Below are positions 2,838-13,657 of a stretch of DNA of 32,000 nt, piece by piece; the stretch's first letter is position 1, and the number at the start of each line of letters is the position of its first letter. This DNA is from an uncultured bacterium (GTDB lineage Bacteria > Verrucomicrobiota > Kiritimatiellia > RFP12 > UBA1067), in NCBI GenBank assembly GCA_902769585.1, contig CACXPT010000024.1, positions 12,682-44,681 of the forward strand. Reading direction: 5' to 3'. Made by a program: the position numbers and the translations under genes. The notes under the pieces are model-generated. The model saw only the letters and a list, made by a program, of their open reading frames with translations, did not search any database and was not told the DNA's origin.

Positions 2838-4090
2838 ATGATGAACACAAGAAGGCAGTTTCTGCAGTTTGCGGGTGGGGGATTTGCGGCCGCATGGGCG
2901 ACATTTCATGCGCGGGCGCTCGCCGACGTGGCGGCGCCGCGTCCGCCGCTGCGCCTCGGCGTGGTGAGCGACATCCACATCCGCAACAACGGCAAGACGG
3001 AGAACGGCTACGTCGCCGGCTCCACCGGCACGTTCCGCGCCGCCCTGGAGTATTTCCGCGAGCGCCGCGTGGACGCCGTGGTGATCGCCGGCGACATGGC
3101 CGACACCGGAAAGATGTCCGAGCTGGACCGCGTGGGACAGGTCTGGCGCGAGGTGTTCCCCGACTGCAAAGGGTTGGACGGCGCGCGCGTGGAGCCGATC
3201 TTCGTGTACGGCAACCACGACCGCCTCGCGTGGAAGTGGCCCCTGCGGGGGGCGGCCGCCAAGGATCCCGAGAAGGTCGCATACGAGAAGGACATCCCGG
3301 CATACGCCGCCGCGCACGCGGCCGAGCTCGACCTGCACGGGCCGCGTCCGTTCTTCTGCGTGCAGCACCCGCATCCGAAGGGGACGCTCTTCAGCTACTG
3401 GGGCAAGGGGGCCTCACCGACGACCGTTCCGTGTGGCAGGGCGCGTTCACGGCCGTCAACACGTGCACGCTACTGCAGATCTCGACGCCCTACGGCGGCG
3501 AGTGGCAGTGCGTGAATTCGCGCCGCAAGGACACGAGCCAGGCCCGTCACATGGGTGCGACGAGCCGCAAGGGACGTCAGGGCATGGTGATGGACGTGTG
3601 GCCCGACCGGCTGGAGATCGAGCGGCGCGAGTTCGCGCTCGGCGAGGTGGCGGGGCCAGTGCGTACGGTGCCGGTACCAGCAAATCCGGCGAATCCCGTC
3701 TATGGCTACGCCGCGCAGGCCGCGCGGACCAGTGCGCCGAAGTTCCCTGTGGGCGCGGCGGTGTCTGTGACGCGTCAGCGTGGTCAGAACACGAAGAAGG
3801 AGATGGAGGACCAGATCGTGGTCGAGTTCCCCTCCGCGTGCGCCGGCGGCGAGAAAGGCCGCGTGCTGCTCTATGAAATCCGTGCGCTCGTGGAAGAACG
3901 CGAGGTGGGCATGTGGAGGCTGGCGCAGGAACTCCACTTCCATCCGCTTGGGCGCGTGCCGACGTCCTCGCGCCTGGTGATCGGCGCAGACGAGGTGCCT
4001 GCGGGCGCGGTGACGTTCCGCGTGACGCCAGTCGGGTTCTTCCACAAAGGCGAACCGATCAAAGGCACGTTGCAGGCGAAGCGATCGTGA
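2838..4090 (+). pseudogene. Tat-signal metallophosphoesterase (calcineurin-like), frameshifted at a G5 run
   Basis: The N-terminal part is ORF 2838..3515: RRQFLQF twin-arginine signal, then VVSDIHI, AGDMAD, VYGNHD and VQHPHPKG motifs. It continues in the frame of ORF 2894..4090 (LTDDRSVWQGAFTAVN...GMVMDVWPDRLEIERREF). The switch is at GGGGG 3407-3411. Adding one G gives ...SYWGKGGLTDDRSVWQG.... No GHxH motif was seen. Confidence 0.7.
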
Positions 4091-6069
4091 GTGACGTGTT
4101 GGTCATCGGCGGCGGACTGGCCGGGTGGCGCGCGGCGGAGGCCGCCGTGGCGTCGGGTTGTTCCGTGACGCTGGTCGCCAACGGGTCGGGCAATTCGCCG
4201 GAGATCCACGCGCTCAATGTGCCGGTGGGGCCGGGCGACTCGGTGGAGCTGTTCGTCGAGGACACACTGAAGAGCGGTGGCGGCTCGTGCGATCCAGCGC
4301 TGGTGGAGGTGCTGTGCCGCGAGTCGGTGAAGCTGGCGGACGAGTTTCCGTTCGACCGCAACGCCGACGGATCGTACAAGATGATCCAGCCGCTTGGCTG
4401 CAGCGTGCCGCGTTGCGTCTCGATCGACCACAAGATCGGCGCGTGGGCGCTTGCAAAGATCAAGCGCGCACTCGTCGGGAAGGTCGAGGTGGTGGAAGGG
4501 CGCGTGACCGGGCTGGAGGCGGGAGGAACCGGCGCGGGGCGCGCCGGTAACGTTTGCGGCGCGCCTCGCGCCGCAATTTCACCTCCGCATCCGTTCTTCC
4601 CGGGTCGAGATTATTTCATGCTTTCCCTTGTCAATGTCTCGCGGGGTGAACATGTCGACTATTGGGAACTTCCAAATTGCGTTTATCACGTATGTTTTCG
4701 CCTCGCCGATTCCGTCGCTGTGTCCGTAAGGCGCGCATGGTCAGACGAACGCGAGGAGTTGGAAGCTCGTCGACGTGGGGAAGGGCCTCCGCTAAGCGAG
4801 GAAGAGTATCGTTCGCTTTTGGGATTACTGTCAGAGAAGATCGGGAGTTACCTCGATGCAGGGAATGGCTCATGCCTTTTGGCTCGGACTGGGATTGCAG
4901 ATTGGTTGCGTGATGCGATTTTCAACGATGATGGTTTAAGGTATGTCATTCACGCCGTTGGGATCATGCCAAACCATGTGCATGTCATCGTCCAGCCGTT
5001 GGAAGGCTTTCGCTTGCGGGAGATCGTCCGGCAGTGGAAGGGGATTAGTGCACACGCAATCAACAAGGTGTTGGGGCGCTCCGGGAAGGTCTGGATGGGC
5101 GATTTTTACAATCGGATCATTCGCGATGCCGATGAATATGCCAATCAGGTGGAATACGTGTTTGGGAATGACATGGTCTCGGCGTGGAAGAGGTCCGATC
5201 CGGCGCGGGGCGCGCCGGAAACGTGTGGGGTGGTGCCGGCGCGGGGCGCGCCGGAAACGTGTGGGGTGGTGCCGGCGCGGGGCGCGCCGGGAACGTTTGC
5301 GGCGCGCCTCGCGCCGCAAAAGGGAGCGGCGGAACGTTGCCTTTTTGCTCGTGCCGTTGTGTTGGCGACGGGCGGATGGTGTGGGAAGTACGCCTTCAGC
5401 GACAATCCGCCGGAACTGCGCGGGGATGGCATCGCGCTCGCGCAGTCGCTCGGCGCGGCGGTGCGCGACCTGGACGCCGTGCAGTACGAACCGACCGTCG
5501 CGCTCGCGCCGGCGCGATTGCGCGGCATCCCCGTGATCACCACGATGCTCCACGAGGGTGCGACCTTTCGCAATTGCTTCGGCAAGGAATTCCTGCCGGA
5601 CAAGCACGCCAACAAGGACGCGATCTCGCGGGCGATCCGCAGTGAGATCGAGGCTGGACGTGGTGTTCCGGCGCGGGGCGCGCCGGAAACGTGTGTGGGG
5701 AAGCCGGCGCGGGGCGCGCCGGAAACGTGCGGTGTCTGGTACGATGCCACTGGCGTGCCGCGCGAGATTCTCGAAACCCGCTATGCGGACACCGTGCGGC
5801 GCTACGCGGCGTGCGGCGTCGACATCACGCGCGAGCCGATGCTCGTGGCGCCTGCGCCTCACACATCGCTTGGCGGCGTCGTCATCGACGCGCGATGCCG
5901 CGTGCTGCGTGCGGACAGCACGCCCGTCCCCGGCCTCTTCGCCGCCGGCGAGGTGACGGGTGGCGTGCATGGCCGCAACCGCGTGGGCGGCAACGCAGGC
6001 ACGGAAGTTCTTGTGTTCGGTCGAATCGCGGGCGAGTCTGCGGCGCAATACGGGAAGCGGCCTCAATGA
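4087..6069 (+). CDS. FAD-dependent oxidoreductase (NadB/SdhA/FrdA flavoprotein-like), interrupted in-frame by three repeat/transposase insertions
   Basis: The start is GTG 4087, overlapping the upstream TGA (GTGA). The Rossmann motif is DVLVIGGGLAGWRAAEAA. AVVLATGG is present. The C-terminal signature is GLFAAGEVTGGVHGRNRVGGNAGTEVLVFGRIAG. The host-like segments 4087-4527, about 5335-5667 and 5740-6069 are all in one frame with the inserts. The 3' end overlaps the convergent RND gene by 7 nt. Confidence 0.75.
   Translation: MSDVLVIGGGLAGWRAAEAAVASGCSVTLVANGSGNSPEIHALNVPVGPGDSVELFVEDTLKSGGGSCDPALVEVLCRESVKLADEFPFDRNADGSYKMIQPLGCSVPRCVSIDHKIGAWALAKIKRALVGKVEVVEGRVTGLEAGGTGAGRAGNVCGAPRAAISPPHPFFPGRDYFMLSLVNVSRGEHVDYWELPNCVYHVCFRLADSVAVSVRRAWSDEREELEARRRGEGPPLSEEEYRSLLGLLSEKIGSYLDAGNGSCLLARTGIADWLRDAIFNDDGLRYVIHAVGIMPNHVHVIVQPLEGFRLREIVRQWKGISAHAINKVLGRSGKVWMGDFYNRIIRDADEYANQVEYVFGNDMVSAWKRSDPARGAPETCGVVPARGAPETCGVVPARGAPGTFAARLAPQKGAAERCLFARAVVLATGGWCGKYAFSDNPPELRGDGIALAQSLGAAVRDLDAVQYEPTVALAPARLRGIPVITTMLHEGATFRNCFGKEFLPDKHANKDAISRAIRSEIEAGRGVPARGAPETCVGKPARGAPETCGVWYDATGVPREILETRYADTVRRYAACGVDITREPMLVAPAPHTSLGGVVIDARCRVLRADSTPVPGLFAAGEVTGGVHGRNRVGGNAGTEVLVFGRIAGESAAQYGKRPQ
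4529..4574. repeat. REPIN-like hairpin (forward plus inverted core) flanking the transposase module on the left
   Basis: The forward core CCGGCGCGGGGCGCGCCGG lies at 4529-4547, the spacer TAACGTTT at 4548-4555, and the inverted core GCGGCGCGCCTCGCGCCGC at 4556-4574. The inverted core has one C-to-T mismatch to a perfect palindrome. Confidence 0.9.
4618..5199 (+). CDS. REP-associated tyrosine transposase (RAYT; IS200-like HUH/Y1) module, in-frame with the host ORF and lacking its own stop codon
   Basis: It starts at ATG 4618. The first strand is VYHVCFRL. The HUH motif is IMPNHVHVIV. The catalytic-Tyr region is VWMGDFYNRIIRDADEYANQVEYVFGND, comparable to E. coli RayT WQPRFWEHAIRNTKDYRHHVDYIYINP. 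GC content is visibly lower than in the flanks. Repeat cores flank it on both sides. The coding frame runs straight into the repeats at 5200. Confidence 0.8.
5200..5317. repeat. Repeat cluster: two identical 36-nt direct units followed by a full REPIN-like hairpin
   Basis: Segments 5200-5235 and 5236-5271 are both CCGGCGCGGGGCGCGCCGGAAACGTGTGGGGTGGTG, and each translates as [13 protein letters not shown] forward core follows at 5272-5290, then GAACGTTT, then the inverted core at 5299-5317. Confidence 0.92.
5668..5739. repeat. Two direct 36-nt repeat units inside the flavoprotein CDS (third insertion site)
   Basis: Perfect forward cores lie at 5668-5686 and 5704-5722. The units translate as [12 protein letters not shown] and [12 protein letters not shown]. 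The total is 72 nt, or 24 codons. Confidence 0.9.
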
Positions 6070-9000
6070 AGACGGCGAATCAGTTCGCGTAGTCGCTGGA
6101 AGATGGCGTAGAGGCCGGGGGTGAAGCAGATGCCTACGAAGGTGGCGGCGAGCATTCCCGAGAAGGTGGAGATGCCGATCGCCTTCTGCGAGCCCGCGCC
6201 TGCGCCTGAGGCGAGGACGAGCGGCAGGACGCCGCAGAGGAAGCTCCATGCCGTCATCTGCACGGCGCGGAAGCGGAGGTCCGCGCCCTTCATCGCGGCG
6301 TCCGTCACGGATAGGCCCGTATCGCGCTGCTGCTTGGCGAACTCGACCATGAGGATCGCGTTCTTTGCGGAGAGGCCGATCAGCATCACCATGCCGAGCT
6401 GCGCGTAGATGCTCATCGGCGTGCCTGTGACCCATAGCCCCACGTACGCGCCGCCGAGCGCGAAGAGGATGGAGCACATCACGGAGAGCGGTACGGTCCA
6501 GCTTTCGTACTGCGCCACCAGGAAGAGGTAGGCGAAGAGCGCCGCCATGCCCATCAGGAATCCGAGCCGGCCCTCGTTCTCCTTCTCCTGTCTACTCATC
6601 TCGCTCCACTCTATGTGGTATCCCTCTGGCGGCGTAAGCTTCTCGATGGCCTTTATGAGAGTGAGCCCTGCGACTCCAGGTGCGGCCTGCGCATTGAGGC
6701 TTGCGGACGGCATCTTGTCGAAGCGCGTCACCTGCTTGGGGCCGACCTCGTAGGTGATGTTCGCGATGGCCGAGAGCGGTACGGACGCGCCGCTCGCTGT
6801 CGTAACATGGAGGTCCGCGACATCCTCCACCGAAGCGCGGTACGAGCCGGCAGACTGCACGATCACCTCGTACGCGCTACCGCCGAGCGTGAAGTCGTTC
6901 ACGTACACGCTCGCGAGCTTGTTCTGGAGCATGGCGAAGACTGCGCTTGGCGAGACGCCGAGGATCTCGGCCTTCCTGCGGTCGAGGGTAAGGCGTAGCT
7001 GTGGGGTGTCCGCGCGGAAGGTGTTCATCACCATGGCCGCCTCTGGAAGGGCGGAGACCTGACGAGCGAACTTCTCGGCGGTTGCGGCAAGTTCGGCGCT
7101 CGTGGCACCTGCGTCGGAGCAGAGGTTGAAGCCCACGCCGCCCACGCGGCCGAGACCCATGATGGGGGGTGATGTGAAGCAGCGGATGCGCGCGGCGTGG
7201 ACGTCCGCCGTGCGGCGCATGATCTCGGCGATGATCGCCTTGACGGACTTGTCGGGCGTGCGGCGCATGTCCCAGTGGTCCAGCGCCACCATGCCCTGTC
7301 CACAGTTCTCGCCGGAGCCTGACATGGCGCCAGAGCCAGACATGAGCATGATGCCGGCGATTCCGGGGATGTCCTTGATGCGCGCCTGGATGTCCTCCAG
7401 CACCTGGTTGGTGCGCTTGAGTGTTGCGCCCTGGGCGAGTTCGATGTCGATGGTGATGTTGCCCTTGTCCTCGTCCGGCAGCAGCGTCTCCTTCACCATG
7501 TCCTTCGCGAACCACACGCCGGCGCATGCGGCGGCGAAGAGAAGCGCCGTCACGATGCCGCGCCGCACGAGCAGTCCTGCGACCGCGAGGTATACCTTGC
7601 GGGAGCCGTCGATCGCGATGTTGACGGGCGCGAACAGACGGGATGGCTTGCCGGGCTTGCGCAGGAGGAGCGAGCAGAGTACTGGGGAGAGGGTGAGCGC
7701 CACGCATGTGGAGAGCGAGAGGGCCACGCACATCGTGAACGCGAACTGGATGTACATCTTGCCGACCATGCCGCCGTAGAAGACGAGCGGGATGTAGCAG
7801 GCTATGGTCACGAGCGTGGTGGCGATGACGGCGCTGGTGATCTGGCGCATGGACTTCTTTGCGGCCTCCTTCGCGGAAAGCCCTTCCGTAGCCATGAGGG
7901 TCTGGGTGTTCTCCACCACTACGATGGCGTCGTCCACGAGCGAGCCAATCACGAGGATGAGACCGAACATCGTGAGGATGTTGATCGTGTAGCCGAACGC
8001 CCACACGAAGATGAAAGTTGCGAGCAGCGATACCGGGATGGCGGCGGCAGGGACGATGGTGGCGCGCCAGTCCTGCAGGAAGAGCCAGGTGATCAGCACG
8101 ACGAGGCCGAGTGCCATGAAGAGGGTGGAGACGATCGCCTTCATGAAGACGAGCGTGAACGCGGTCGCGTCGTGCACGGTCTCCATCTCCACGCCTGCGG
8201 GGAGGCGCTTGTCCCATTCAGCCAGCTCAGCCTTCACGCGCTTGACCACGGCGAGGGCATTCGCCTCTGGCGTCTTGTACACGGAGAGGACGATCGCCTC
8301 CTTGCCGTTCATGAGCGACTTGCCGGAATAGCTCTTCGAGCCGAGCTCGATGCGCGCCACGTCGCCGAGCAGCACCTGTCCGCCGGTGGCTGGGTCGCTG
8401 CGGACGACAATGTCGGCGAACTCGTCGGCGGATTTCAGCCGGCCTTCGGCGTTGAGCTTGTAGGAGAGGTAGCGGCTCGCGTACTCGCTGCCGACCGTGC
8501 CGGCGGCGGCCTGGACGTTCTGCTTCTCGATGGCGGAGGAGACATCGGTGATAGAGAGGTTGAGCGAGGCCATGCGCACTGGGTCGAGCCAGATGCGCAT
8601 CGCGTACTCGCGCGAGGCCATCACTTCTGCGACGGAGACGCCATCGAGGCGCATGACCGCTTCCTTTATGTTCTTCTCCACGTAGTCGCCGAGCTGCTGG
8701 AGGGACTGCTTGGTGCCGTCCGTGGTGAAGGCCCAGAGGGCGAGCATGTCCGAGTTGCGCTTCTGGACGGAGATGCCCTGTTGCTTGACGGTGGAGGGGA
8801 GCTTGCGCTCGGCGCGCTTCACGGCGTTCTGTAGGTTGACGAGCGCCATGTCGGTGTCGGCGCCGCTCTTGAACGTGACGGAGCAGGAGTAGCTGCCGTT
8901 GTTGTCGCAGGAAGACGAGTAGTAGAGGAGGTTCTCCACGCCGTTGATCTGGTCCTCCACGGGGATGGCGATGGAATCGGCGACGACCTGCGCGCTAGCG

Positions 9001-11848: not shown

Positions 11849-13657
11849 ATGGAGAACATCAGGCCCATACTGTACGGCGTGGCGGACTATGCCGAGCTGC
11901 GCAAGGCGAACGCCTGGTTCGTGGACCGCACCGCGAAGATCCGCGACCTGGAAGCGACGCGCTACGCGATGTTTTTGCGTCCGCGCAGGTTCGGGAAGTC
12001 GCTCTGGACGTCCATTCTCGAGGCGTACTACGACGTGCGCTACGCCGACCGTTTCGACGAGTTTTTCTCTGGGACGGACATCGGGGCTAATCCGACGGAC
12101 GAGCACGGCAAGTATCTTGTGCTGAGATTCGACTTCGCGTCGATCACAAAGGACGAGGAAAAGGTTCAGGGAGACTTCGACTACAAGGCGTCGCTGCAGT
12201 GCGACACATTTGCGAGAAACTACAGAGAGATTCTCTCGGACGAGCTCGCAGACCGCATCCTGAACGCGCCGGACATCGGAAAGAAGCTTGCGCAGATATA
12301 CCTTGGCCTCAAGGGGACGGACAAAAAGCTCTACGTCATCATCGACGAATACGACAACTTCACGAACACCATACTCGCCGAGCATGGACAGGCCGTGTAT
12401 GACAGTCTCTGCCACGGCGATGGATTCTTCAAGGACTTCTTCACGTCGCTCAAGTCTGCGACTTCCGGTACCGAAGCGCCCGTGACGCGTCTATTCATAA
12501 CCGGCGTGTCGCCCGTGACGATGGACGACGTGACGAGCGGCTTCAACATCGGGACGAACATCTCGCTCGACCCGCAGTTCGCCGACCTGACCGGATTCCG
12601 CCACGATGACCTCCGCGCCATCGCCGACTACTACGCCCCGTGCTGCGGCTTCGACGCCGACAAGGCGTACAACGCAGCGCTCGCATGGTACGACAACTAC
12701 CGCTTCGGCAGCGTGGACGCGCCGGCGCTCGCCAACACGACGCTCGTCCTCTCGCTTTTCAGCCATCTGTGGCGCACGAAGCAGTTCCCCGACGACTTCA
12801 TCGACGAGAACCTGCGTACCGACTACGCGAAGATACGCCATCTCATCACGGCGGACAGGCGGCTCAACGGCAACTTCCATGTCCTTGAGAATCTGCTGGC
12901 GGGAGGTTCGCTGTCGGAGCGGCTCGTGAAGTCGTTTCAGGCACGGGAGCTTTCGCAGAAGGAGAACTTCACGTCGCTCCTCTATTGGCTCGGCATCACC
13001 ACGATCACTGGCGGCAAGTTCGGGAAGATGGAGTTCGGCGTCCCGAACGAGACGCTGAAGGAGCTCGCGGCGAAGATCATACCCGCAGCCTACGCCGATG
13101 TCCACAAGATCGACGAGAGGGTGTATGGCATCAATGACGGGCTCTGCGAGTTCGCCGACAATGGAAATTGGCGCGGATTTGTCGGGACGCTTGCAGAGAT
13201 CGCGAAGGAGAACTTCGCGGTGCGCGACGCGGTCGAGGGCGAGAAGGTGGTGCAGTCGACGCTCGTCGCGCTGCTCTGCGCCGCCGGCGGGCCGTATTTC
13301 GTCCGGCACGAGCGCGAGGCGGGCGGAGGGTTCTACGACATCGCCCTCGTGCCGCAGCTCTCCCGCTGGCCGGACATCGCGCACGCCGCGCTCATCGAGA
13401 TGAAGTACGTGAAGGCGGGCGATCCTGCGCCGACGGCGGAAGAGCTCGCGAAGATCAAGGCCGAGGCCATTGAGCAGCTTGATCGGTACTCTTCCGACCC
13501 GGCCCTTGTATCTGCTTGGCACCTTGCCCCTCAACCTTCAAACTCTCAACCTTCAAACTCTCAAACTCTCAAACTTTCAAACTTGCAAACAGTTGCCCTC
13601 CACCGTCTCGTCCTCGTGTTCCACGGAGGCGATGCGCTGCTGGCGGAAGAGGTGTAG
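11849..13657 (+). CDS. Predicted AAA-ATPase (PF09820-like) fused to a C-terminal PD-(D/E)XK nuclease-like domain (PDDEXK_9-like)
   Basis: The N-terminus is typical of the family: YGVADYAELRKANAWFVDRTAKIRDLE...FLRPRRFGKSLWTSILEAYYD. The C-terminus carries GGGFYDIALVP...AALIEMKYVKAG and VLVFHGGD. A low-complexity stretch, PQPSNSQPSNSQTLKLSNLQ, is encoded by a tandem repeat near the 3' end. Confidence 0.8.
   Translation: MENIRPILYGVADYAELRKANAWFVDRTAKIRDLEATRYAMFLRPRRFGKSLWTSILEAYYDVRYADRFDEFFSGTDIGANPTDEHGKYLVLRFDFASITKDEEKVQGDFDYKASLQCDTFARNYREILSDELADRILNAPDIGKKLAQIYLGLKGTDKKLYVIIDEYDNFTNTILAEHGQAVYDSLCHGDGFFKDFFTSLKSATSGTEAPVTRLFITGVSPVTMDDVTSGFNIGTNISLDPQFADLTGFRHDDLRAIADYYAPCCGFDADKAYNAALAWYDNYRFGSVDAPALANTTLVLSLFSHLWRTKQFPDDFIDENLRTDYAKIRHLITADRRLNGNFHVLENLLAGGSLSERLVKSFQARELSQKENFTSLLYWLGITTITGGKFGKMEFGVPNETLKELAAKIIPAAYADVHKIDERVYGINDGLCEFADNGNWRGFVGTLAEIAKENFAVRDAVEGEKVVQSTLVALLCAAGGPYFVRHEREAGGGFYDIALVPQLSRWPDIAHAALIEMKYVKAGDPAPTAEELAKIKAEAIEQLDRYSSDPALVSAWHLAPQPSNSQPSNSQTLKLSNLQTVALHRLVLVFHGGDALLAEEV
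13530..13590. repeat. Tandem repeat (15-mer x2, then 8-mer x3-4) within the ATPase/nuclease CDS
   Basis: CTCAACCTTCAAACT occurs at 13530-13544 and 13545-13559. CTCAAACT occurs at 13560-13567 and 13568-13575. TTCAAACT lies at 13576-13583 and TGCAAAC at 13584-13590. The tract is AT-richer than its surroundings. Confidence 0.9.

Follow-up and report, generated by a model that had tools for sequence, protein, structure and literature searches.

How can the gene of a transposase lie within the gene of an enzyme, in the same orientation and reading frame and without a stop codon of its own, while both remain conserved? The question is raised by a 32,000-nucleotide stretch of DNA from an uncultured member of the Kiritimatiellia (contig CACXPT010000024.1; hereafter "the window", meaning the whole stretch analyzed), in which a gene for a NadB/SdhA-like flavoprotein encloses a REP-associated tyrosine transposase (RAYT) together with repetitive extragenic palindromic (REP) sequences and their inverted doublets (REPINs). 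The samples in which this lineage occurs appear to stem from rumen or gut. RAYTs and REP sequences are the textbook example of repeats outside genes, and the RAYT itself is regarded as a domesticated, autonomous gene present in one copy. An earlier note, made from the sequence alone, had pointed out the locus and proposed several meanings for it. Our analysis shows that the nested arrangement is real, old and common to independent assemblies. As for its explanation, we consider it likely that a whole REPtron (REPIN, RAYT and REP array) sits inside the flavoprotein gene at an exposed beta-hairpin and is read through in the frame of its host.

The chimeric reading frame and its insertion sites

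Positions 4087 to 6069 form one open reading frame (ORF) of 660 codons whose frame contains a single stop, at 6067, as the earlier note had described, with the RAYT in the orientation and frame of its host; the other two forward frames of the same interval contain 11 and 9 stops. The GTG at 4087 with which the ORF starts aligns with the ATG of its orthologues and overlaps the stop codon of the upstream ORF as GTGA. In Pfam searches, this one polypeptide matches both Y1_Tnp (aa 286-342) and, with two separate stretches, FAD_binding_2 (8e-47). REPINs flank the former, and the flavoprotein is indeed interrupted by a RAYT with its palindromic repeats. The host is a conserved FAD enzyme of the Kiritimatiellae with a Rossmann N-terminal part; its first segment and that of P0003, an orthologue without the insertion, are 91% identical over 144 aa. 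A query made of the host parts only retrieved thousands of relatives, from which we used the best 120 orthologue clusters (69-89% identity, mostly 380-400 aa, one of them named Kiritimatiellae). No paralogue of the host was found within the window.

The alignment to insertion-free orthologues that the earlier note had called for was carried out at the DNA level with two of them, L002 and L003, and set the borders of the cassette. At this first site (site 1), the host breaks off after ...CTGGAGGCGGGAGG (LEAGG, 4527) and restarts at GCTCGTGCC (ARAVV, 5347), so that the junctions read ...LEAGG/TGAG... and ...ERCLF/ARAVV.... The window has 273 codons where the orthologues have 18 (SQFTATVSDAQERVPPMV); the plain insertion assumed earlier is therefore better described as a replacement. 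Site 1 corresponds to a beta-hairpin of the beta-meander of the FAD domain, directly before the conserved AVVLATGG strand, and is hypervariable across the 120 orthologue clusters. Other in-frame REPs are present there: in about 10 of the 120 clusters, a different repeat of 12 aa (ATGGTPVVPVRQ) occurs in one, two or three units. No insertion-free allele has a REPIN at this site. In L002 and L003, the "empty" site 1 consists of two palindromes at the DNA level, GTCGCAGTTTACTGCGAC and GGACGCGCAGGAGCGCGTCC, which might be a hairpin target or the scar of an older REP. Site 2 is the turn that links the helix ...AIRSEIEAGRG to the strand VWYDAT, as judged from alignments to 7d6v and 1chu, and its copy number varies among orthologues between 0, 1, 2 and 3 units: about 35 of the 120 clusters carry one in-frame copy of the window's REP (PARGAPETC), P0028 carries two like the window, P0014 three, and still other clusters have other short inserts.

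The identity of the inserted domain as an IS200-like HUH/Y1 transposase, first proposed from its motifs, is upheld by fold comparison and by the conservation of these motifs among homologues, the profile matches being divided (above the cut-off in Pfam, below it in NCBIfam). The Pfam family Y1_Tnp matches with 27.5-30.4 bits (cut-off 23), the HUH motif HVHVIV lies at 4975-4992 (NHVHVIV, aa 296-302) with its M, P, N, H and H residues invariant in an alignment of 47 homologues, and the tyrosine motif YVFGND lies at 5155-5172, its Tyr and Asn being equally invariant across homologues. An AlphaFold2 model built with the 47 homologues reached a mean predicted local distance difference test score (pLDDT) of 85.5 and a predicted template modeling score (pTM) of 0.80, and its best Foldseek match was 4er8_A (E=3e-6), from the E. 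coli RAYT-REP complex; about 29 chains of IS200/IS605 TnpA ranked next. An indexed protein search yielded 56 relatives, several of them named RayT. Compared with its homologues the domain is full length; it ends in ...WKRSD and the REPs follow directly, without the stop codon whose absence had already been remarked upon. Rather than an extragenic gene with its own start and stop, this RAYT is thus nested in frame. It also differs in composition from its surroundings, with a GC content of 0.50-0.58 (host: 0.66-0.74) and, in the window, a GC content at third codon positions (GC3) of 0.59 (host: 0.79-0.87).

The start of the RAYT, placed earlier at ATG 4618, has to be moved upstream, given that its coding region begins at 4594 or before and includes the peptide FFPGRDYF. 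Between the window and L006, an independent copy described below, this peptide shows 4 synonymous and no non-synonymous changes; compared with L001, the closest separate RAYT, it shows 2 synonymous differences, at sites also variable in L006, and it is kept as FPG[RKT] in RAYT homologues at 40-47% identity. There is no in-frame ATG, GTG or TTG between the left REPIN and FFPGRDYF, and the Met of ATG 4618 is missing in the more distant copy L010 and in other, more distant homologues. With FFPGRDYF conserved before ATG 4618 and lacking a start codon, translation of the RAYT most likely comes from upstream, as part of the host polypeptide. The earlier suggestion that the transposase hitch-hikes on host expression consequently holds in spirit, without the internal start at ATG 4618 that went with it.

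The REP core, GGCGCGGGGCGCGCCGG, consists of an 8-bp stem with a GGG loop (single-stranded form, CCGGCGCGGGGCGCGCCGG) and occurs 10 times in the 32-kb window, where 0.15 copies are expected, at three loci; 8 of the 10 lie within the flavoprotein ORF. The two remaining cores, at 2125 (+) and 2174 (-), belong to an in-frame 69-nt REPIN of the same family (23 codons, 2122-2192) within an IlvD/Edd-type dehydratase gene, so that all ten cores are intragenic and in frame and none is intergenic. REPINs on both sides of the RAYT and a REP family dispersed over the window are what a REPtron would display, and in-frame intragenic palindromic repeats are found in the dehydratase gene and at site 2, where orthologues such as L002 are free of insertions. 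The left REPIN (4529-4576) is a direct, near-exact copy of 5272-5319. On the right flank, the three REPs previously counted are there as three forward cores, to which an inverted core must be added that completes the right REPIN and encodes TFAARLAP, followed by a degenerate remnant down to 5346. No frame of the six is closed in the 36-nt forward unit, and only one is in the 33-nt inverted unit found in L001 and L006. Since both lengths are multiples of three, a change in copy number never breaks the frame, and we rejected the maintenance of the frame across such changes as independent evidence of selection because these units keep it automatically. The cassette ends on the right in a weak hairpin resembling a terminator, with a run of five T behind it (5326-5346; GCGGCGGAACGTTGC CTTTTT), at a frequency in our scan that is at chance level; GGAACGTTGCCTTTTTGCT is the same in L006, and the hairpin is probably a remnant of the REPIN spacer.

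Table 1. Position of the chimeric ORF, its parts and the REP-bearing dehydratase gene in the window.
Feature	Position	Strand	Basis or description
Chimeric ORF	4087..6069	+	flavoprotein with nested REPIN-RAYT-REP cassette and second REP insertion
Host N-terminal segment, aa 1-147, Rossmann FAD-binding	4087..4527	+	ends ...RVTGLEAGG; DNA alignment to L002/L003
Left REPIN, two inverted REP hairpins	4529..4576	.	DNA minimum free energy -27 kcal/mol
RAYT leader with conserved FFPGRDYF (4594-4617)	4577..4617	+	DNA comparison to L006 and L001
RAYT, REP-associated HUH/Y1 tyrosine transposase domain	4594..5199	+	Pfam Y1_Tnp; AlphaFold2/Foldseek fold
Two tandem 36-nt REP units	5200..5271	+	tandem unit exactly 36 nt
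Right REPIN (5272-5319) with degenerate REP remnant and junction (QKGAAERCLF)	5272..5346	.	
Host middle segment, ARAVVLATGG ... EAGRGV	5347..5667	+	orthologue alignments
Site 2, two in-frame 36-nt REP units	~5668..5730	+	REP cores and orthologue alignments
Host C-terminal segment, GLFAAGE...GGNAG and stop 6067	5731..6069	+	orthologue alignments
IlvD/Edd-type dehydratase gene, 578 aa	1054..2790	+	NCBIfam dihydroxy-acid dehydratase, 3.5e-159

Independent copies and selection on host and RAYT

An exact-pattern scan of metagenome contigs recovered the same flavoprotein with the same nested RAYT and junctions in L006 (JAEEGL011631853.1). The whole ORF is open there too, with other REP counts: on the left, the REPIN is accompanied by three forward units, the right flank has a 33-nt inverted unit in addition, and site 2 holds a single unit. 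In L010 (P0177, 680 aa), which also has an open ORF, the RAYT occupies the same hairpin and is 53% identical to that of the window, the host segments being about 65% identical (an estimate from the alignment; 54% over the whole protein). These two independent contigs answer the concern about mis-assembly that had accompanied the first description. Scans of genome contigs with the RAYT protein and with a 29-nt RAYT DNA pattern gave no match.

Nei-Gojobori estimates for the window and L006 gave a ratio of non-synonymous to synonymous substitution rates (dN/dS) of 0.14 for the host segments (dS 0.43, 363 codons) and of 0.08-0.09 for the RAYT (dS 0.71-0.75, 194-202 codons), the N-terminal host segment taken separately having a value of 0.20. 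Host dN/dS ranges from 0.10 to 0.14 in all pairs formed by the window, L006 and two insertion-free alleles, and from 0.10 to 0.13 for the insertion-free orthologues. Private non-synonymous and synonymous changes number 8/24 and 10/34 in the RAYT-bearing alleles and 7/16 and 6/21 in the insertion-free ones. Constraint is not relaxed in the alleles that bear the RAYT, and host and RAYT are both under strong purifying selection. Among the meanings first put forward, that of a recently inactivated gene left open by chance does not survive these results, since L006 and L010 share the arrangement and selection acts on both partners; that of a tolerated insertion in a surface beta-hairpin does, because the site is hypervariable, carries other in-frame REPs, and lies in a host whose dN/dS is as low as that of insertion-free alleles. 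The chance of an open read-through, which requires the same orientation and two in-frame junctions, the REP units being open, is about 1/18. This would not be negligible for one case, and it becomes irrelevant because of the independent copies L006 and L010.

We also considered the window and L006 as a clade of the host gene and rejected it, the four alleles being roughly equidistant in every segment; from this equidistance, the population probably recombines. L001 (P0121, 731 nt), whose RAYT is 89% identical to ours at the amino acid level, has three 33-nt inverted REP units upstream, and its RAYT is cut at the catalytic Tyr motif by an unrelated AT-rich sequence (661-731). Too short and ending at the Tyr motif, it was dropped as a second genomic context.

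RAYTs in other host proteins and further features of the window

A phmmer scan of 1.84 billion cluster representatives with the RAYT of the window produced 5468 matches, the best 150 of which were classified: the RAYT is flanked by 100 aa or more on both sides in 37 of them and on one side in 33, and the other 80 are free-standing. According to Pfam, what surrounds the RAYT is an ordinary host protein that it splits in two. The hosts include the same flavoprotein, valyl-tRNA synthetase (ValRS, two representatives), alanyl-tRNA synthetase (AlaRS, five), UvrA, CarB (two), PdxA, HypF, MurC-Ddl, XseA, IspG, a poly(A)/CCA polymerase, DinG-like helicases (three), chorismate-binding enzymes (two), an MqnA-like protein, a Zn-ADH, B12-radical-SAM proteins, a TPP enzyme, GH38 proteins and several restriction-modification methylases. 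This diversity of hosts is real. The named members belong to the Opitutales and Phycisphaerae, that is, to bacteria of the Planctomycetes-Verrucomicrobia-Chlamydiae (PVC) superphylum. In the sequences inspected, the RAYT is bracketed by a direct repeat of a REPIN-encoded peptide, as in P0194, with GGTGILPVSLLEK[AT]HGQDAHATQ on either side.

Nesting recurs at identical sites in the ValRS, PdxA and AlaRS clusters. The two ValRS, 62% identical, carry their RAYT at the same hairpin, and from our reading of the alignment their RAYT parts look about equally diverged; the insert, of 248 residues, falls between residues 204 and 209 of the T. thermophilus structure 1GAX, in a hairpin turn. Nested forms are spread over a rough neighbor-joining tree of RAYT domains, in which RAYTs from the same host gene cluster together and close relatives are also found in different host genes. 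Free-standing intergenic relatives exist as well (L011, L012). The hairpin of the flavoprotein is occupied in distant orthologues and empty in closer ones, a pattern for which homing, the transfer of alleles or separate insertions might account. No genome in this set was shown to hold more than one nested RAYT, P0232 and P0262 stemming from different samples.

Some relatives depart from this organization. P0125-P0128 and P0156, from several independent sources, have circularly permuted ORFs in which the C-terminal half (WKS...YV.RNN) is followed by REP-encoded repeats, the N-terminal half (FPGK...HVHVIAEF) and again REPs; in L008 (2238-3083), a permuted RAYT ORF comes directly after the genes of a type I restriction-modification S subunit and of AbiEi. 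REP-encoded peptide repeats also occur in frame within RAYT genes themselves (P0161, P0124, P0339). In P0161, VDATPSSR... is found upstream of, inside and downstream of the RAYT, and P0339 has a solo REP peptide (GILPACPEGVSP) at a second site of a ValRS already bearing a nested RAYT.

Elsewhere in the window, the Metallophos match of the ORF at 2838-3515 covers only profile positions 1-72 of 191, and a conserved ORF at 3557-4090 (MVMDVWPDRLEIE..., also present in L006) lies in another frame, so that the region between ilvD and the flavoprotein gene may contain a frameshift or two separate genes. Positions 13530-13590 hold about 7 tandem copies of a repeat with a period of 8/15 nt (CTCAAACT...), unrelated to the REP family.

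Competing explanations and biological meaning

In the explanation that we favor, the flavoprotein gene would give rise to one polypeptide of about 660 aa in which the flavoprotein part still folds and works, the RAYT being an inserted domain looped out from a surface hairpin on Gly/Pro/Ala-rich linkers encoded by the REPs. The RAYT would rely on the promoter, start codon and stop codon of the host gene, and selection would act as a filter through which only in-frame, stop-free insertions in permissive loops survive. Once established, such insertions would be hard to lose. The spacings of equivalent REP positions across the RAYT (671/707/743 nt in the window and 695/743/776 nt in L006) are all of the form 3n+2, which implies that, in these two alleles, a REP-REP recombination deleting the RAYT would frameshift the host gene. 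This frame trap could stabilize the nested arrangement; it is not universal, given that the flanking peptides share one frame in P0194 and P0207.

Two other explanations concern what is made from the locus. Internal initiation at ATG 4618 would yield a RAYT joined to the last two-thirds of the flavoprotein, and the product of full length would be irrelevant or harmful. This ATG is indeed found in the window, L006 and L001, and gene callers begin the RAYT of L001 there. However, the FFPGRDYF that precedes it is under purifying selection and kept in distant homologues, the Met is not, the N-terminal host segment is itself constrained, our promoter and terminator scan detected nothing like a sigma-70 promoter on the plus strand within the gene, and 4618 is not preceded by an obvious Shine-Dalgarno sequence, all of which makes this route unlikely. 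We give even less credit to a removal of the cassette before the enzyme functions, whether the RAYT excises the DNA in a subpopulation, the RNA is processed at the REPIN hairpins, or the protein is spliced or cleaved. The flanking REPINs do form strong hairpins, inteins and IStrons are precedents for nested elements that splice out, and IS200/IS605 relatives excise precisely as single-stranded circles. Nevertheless, an Rfam scan of 3800-6300 revealed neither introns nor ribozymes, its sole matches being hairpin look-alikes below threshold at the REPIN, a Pfam scan of the whole ORF found no Hint/intein domain, an excision from one REP to its equivalent would, with the 3n+2 spacing given above, break the frame without restoring the 18 lost codons, and the universal in-frame, stop-free state of nested copies is expected if they are translated through.

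A recently inactivated flavoprotein pseudogene, its frame open by chance with the help of high GC and stop-free REPs, might draw support from REP units that are open in nearly all frames, from the long spurious ORFs common in the GC-rich DNA of the window, from the chance of about 1/18 calculated above, and from the loss of 18 host codons that include one beta-strand. Such a pseudogene is highly improbable when L006 and L010 are likewise open despite a dS of 0.4-0.7 and about 35% divergence of the host protein, when host dN/dS (0.14) equals that of insertion-free alleles, when the window holds no paralogue, and when comparable nesting occurs in essential genes. An assembly chimera, in which the assembler spliced a RAYT cassette into the gene at shared REP repeats, is scarcely credible. 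The cassette is bounded by near-identical 48-nt REPINs, the GC content of the RAYT differs, and the related data are mostly short metagenome contigs, but the same nesting is present, with diverged sequence, in three independent assemblies of different projects and at identical sites in other proteins, taking out the 743 nt between the REPINs breaks the frame, and no insertion-free allele has a REPIN at site 1.

Several observations nonetheless weigh against a RAYT that is read through as a domain of a working flavoprotein. The Tyr motif has ND instead of NP, the Pro being replaced by Asp or Asn in this sub-clade, and the best NCBIfam family, REP_Tyr_transpos (9e-14), scores 51.5 bits against a cut-off of 80. 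The host has lost the middle strand of its beta-meander (QFTATV) with the cassette, and that the REP-encoded TFAARLA stands in for it is only a guess; the AlphaFold2 model of the chimera, made from an alignment of host rows only, is uninformative (mean pLDDT 53). The GC3 of the RAYT is 0.52-0.61 in every copy (window, L006, L010 and L001), with 0.79-0.89 in the flanking host, despite deep divergence, which could indicate repeated horizontal replacement rather than long residence, or selection on codon usage. Recombination with insertion-free alleles, for its part, could have refreshed the host flanks. Finally, the nested fraction of 25% is inflated, as clustering at 50% identity gives each chimera its own cluster.

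With these points in mind, a translated, in-frame REPtron can be compared with known systems. It resembles the REPtrons of E. coli (yafM), Pseudomonas and Stenotrophomonas in its HUH/Y1 fold with HUH and Tyr motifs, in the inverted REP hairpins of a nearby-dispersed family that flank the RAYT, and in having free-standing intergenic relatives in the same clade (L011, L012). Whereas the classical REPtron is an extragenic, autonomous gene, this one is intragenic, in frame, devoid of its own start and stop, and flanked by translated REPs. That REPs are extragenic by definition, as had been stated for this locus, is contradicted by published in-frame intragenic REPs, most numerous in Opitutus terrae, a PVC bacterium (Di Nocera et al. 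2013, PMC3733652); Rickettsia palindromic elements (RPE) also lie in frame within genes (Ogata et al. 2000, as cited in PMC3733652). Those elements are short GC-rich palindromes in frame in unrelated functional genes, often as dimers or clusters encoding 20-80 aa, including in a relative from the PVC superphylum, and site 2, the REPIN of the dehydratase and the site-1 REPs of orthologues are exactly of this kind. Unlike them, the cassette carries a transposase gene as part of the translated insertion, and for such a nested in-frame RAYT we found no description in the literature searched, which did not cover all journals, in agreement with the novelty claimed at the outset.

By analogy, the element may be likened to inteins with homing endonucleases, which are also selfish elements with a DNA-cleaving enzyme, in frame and stop-less in conserved, often essential genes, dependent on their host for expression, found at the same site in diverged orthologues and hard to delete imprecisely. 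It differs from them in lacking a Hint domain, splice-junction residues and any sign of protein splicing, in occupying a variable surface hairpin instead of a conserved active-site motif, and in the nature of its enzyme, a HUH single-strand DNA transposase. IStrons, which combine an IS200/IS605-type transposon with a group I intron, likewise render the insertion of an element of the IS200/IS605 superfamily in a gene harmless; they are removed by RNA self-splicing, whereas no ribozyme is present here and tolerance appears to operate at the protein level. Protein splicing and RNA splicing are thus the known solutions to harmless gene insertion, and a RAYT kept as a translated domain of the host enzyme would be a different way to insert in genes without killing the host.

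The case described here exemplifies a wider habit, apparently not described before, of a clade of RAYTs in PVC bacteria. We tend to think, with some reserve, that it belongs to unrecognized intragenic mobile elements of PVC bacteria, "in-frame REPtrons", whose transposase has no start or stop of its own and would be made as a domain of a host protein. There is a consequence for annotation, in that such proteins have been thrown out as fusions or errors: "unexpectedly long" members of the RAYT family were discarded on these grounds by Quentin et al. 2018 (PMC6006769). Nesting offers a reason for REP units being stop-free and multiples of three in these genomes, and nested RAYTs suggest a natural source of domain insertions and HUH-tagged proteins. 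If true, in-frame REPtrons would gain guaranteed expression while holding the host gene hostage, so that their deletion is resisted, and would repeatedly target, or persist at, the same hairpins during a long co-divergence with their hosts. Theirs would be an intein-like lifestyle without splicing, often in essential genes such as those for ValRS, AlaRS, IspG, UvrA and CarB.

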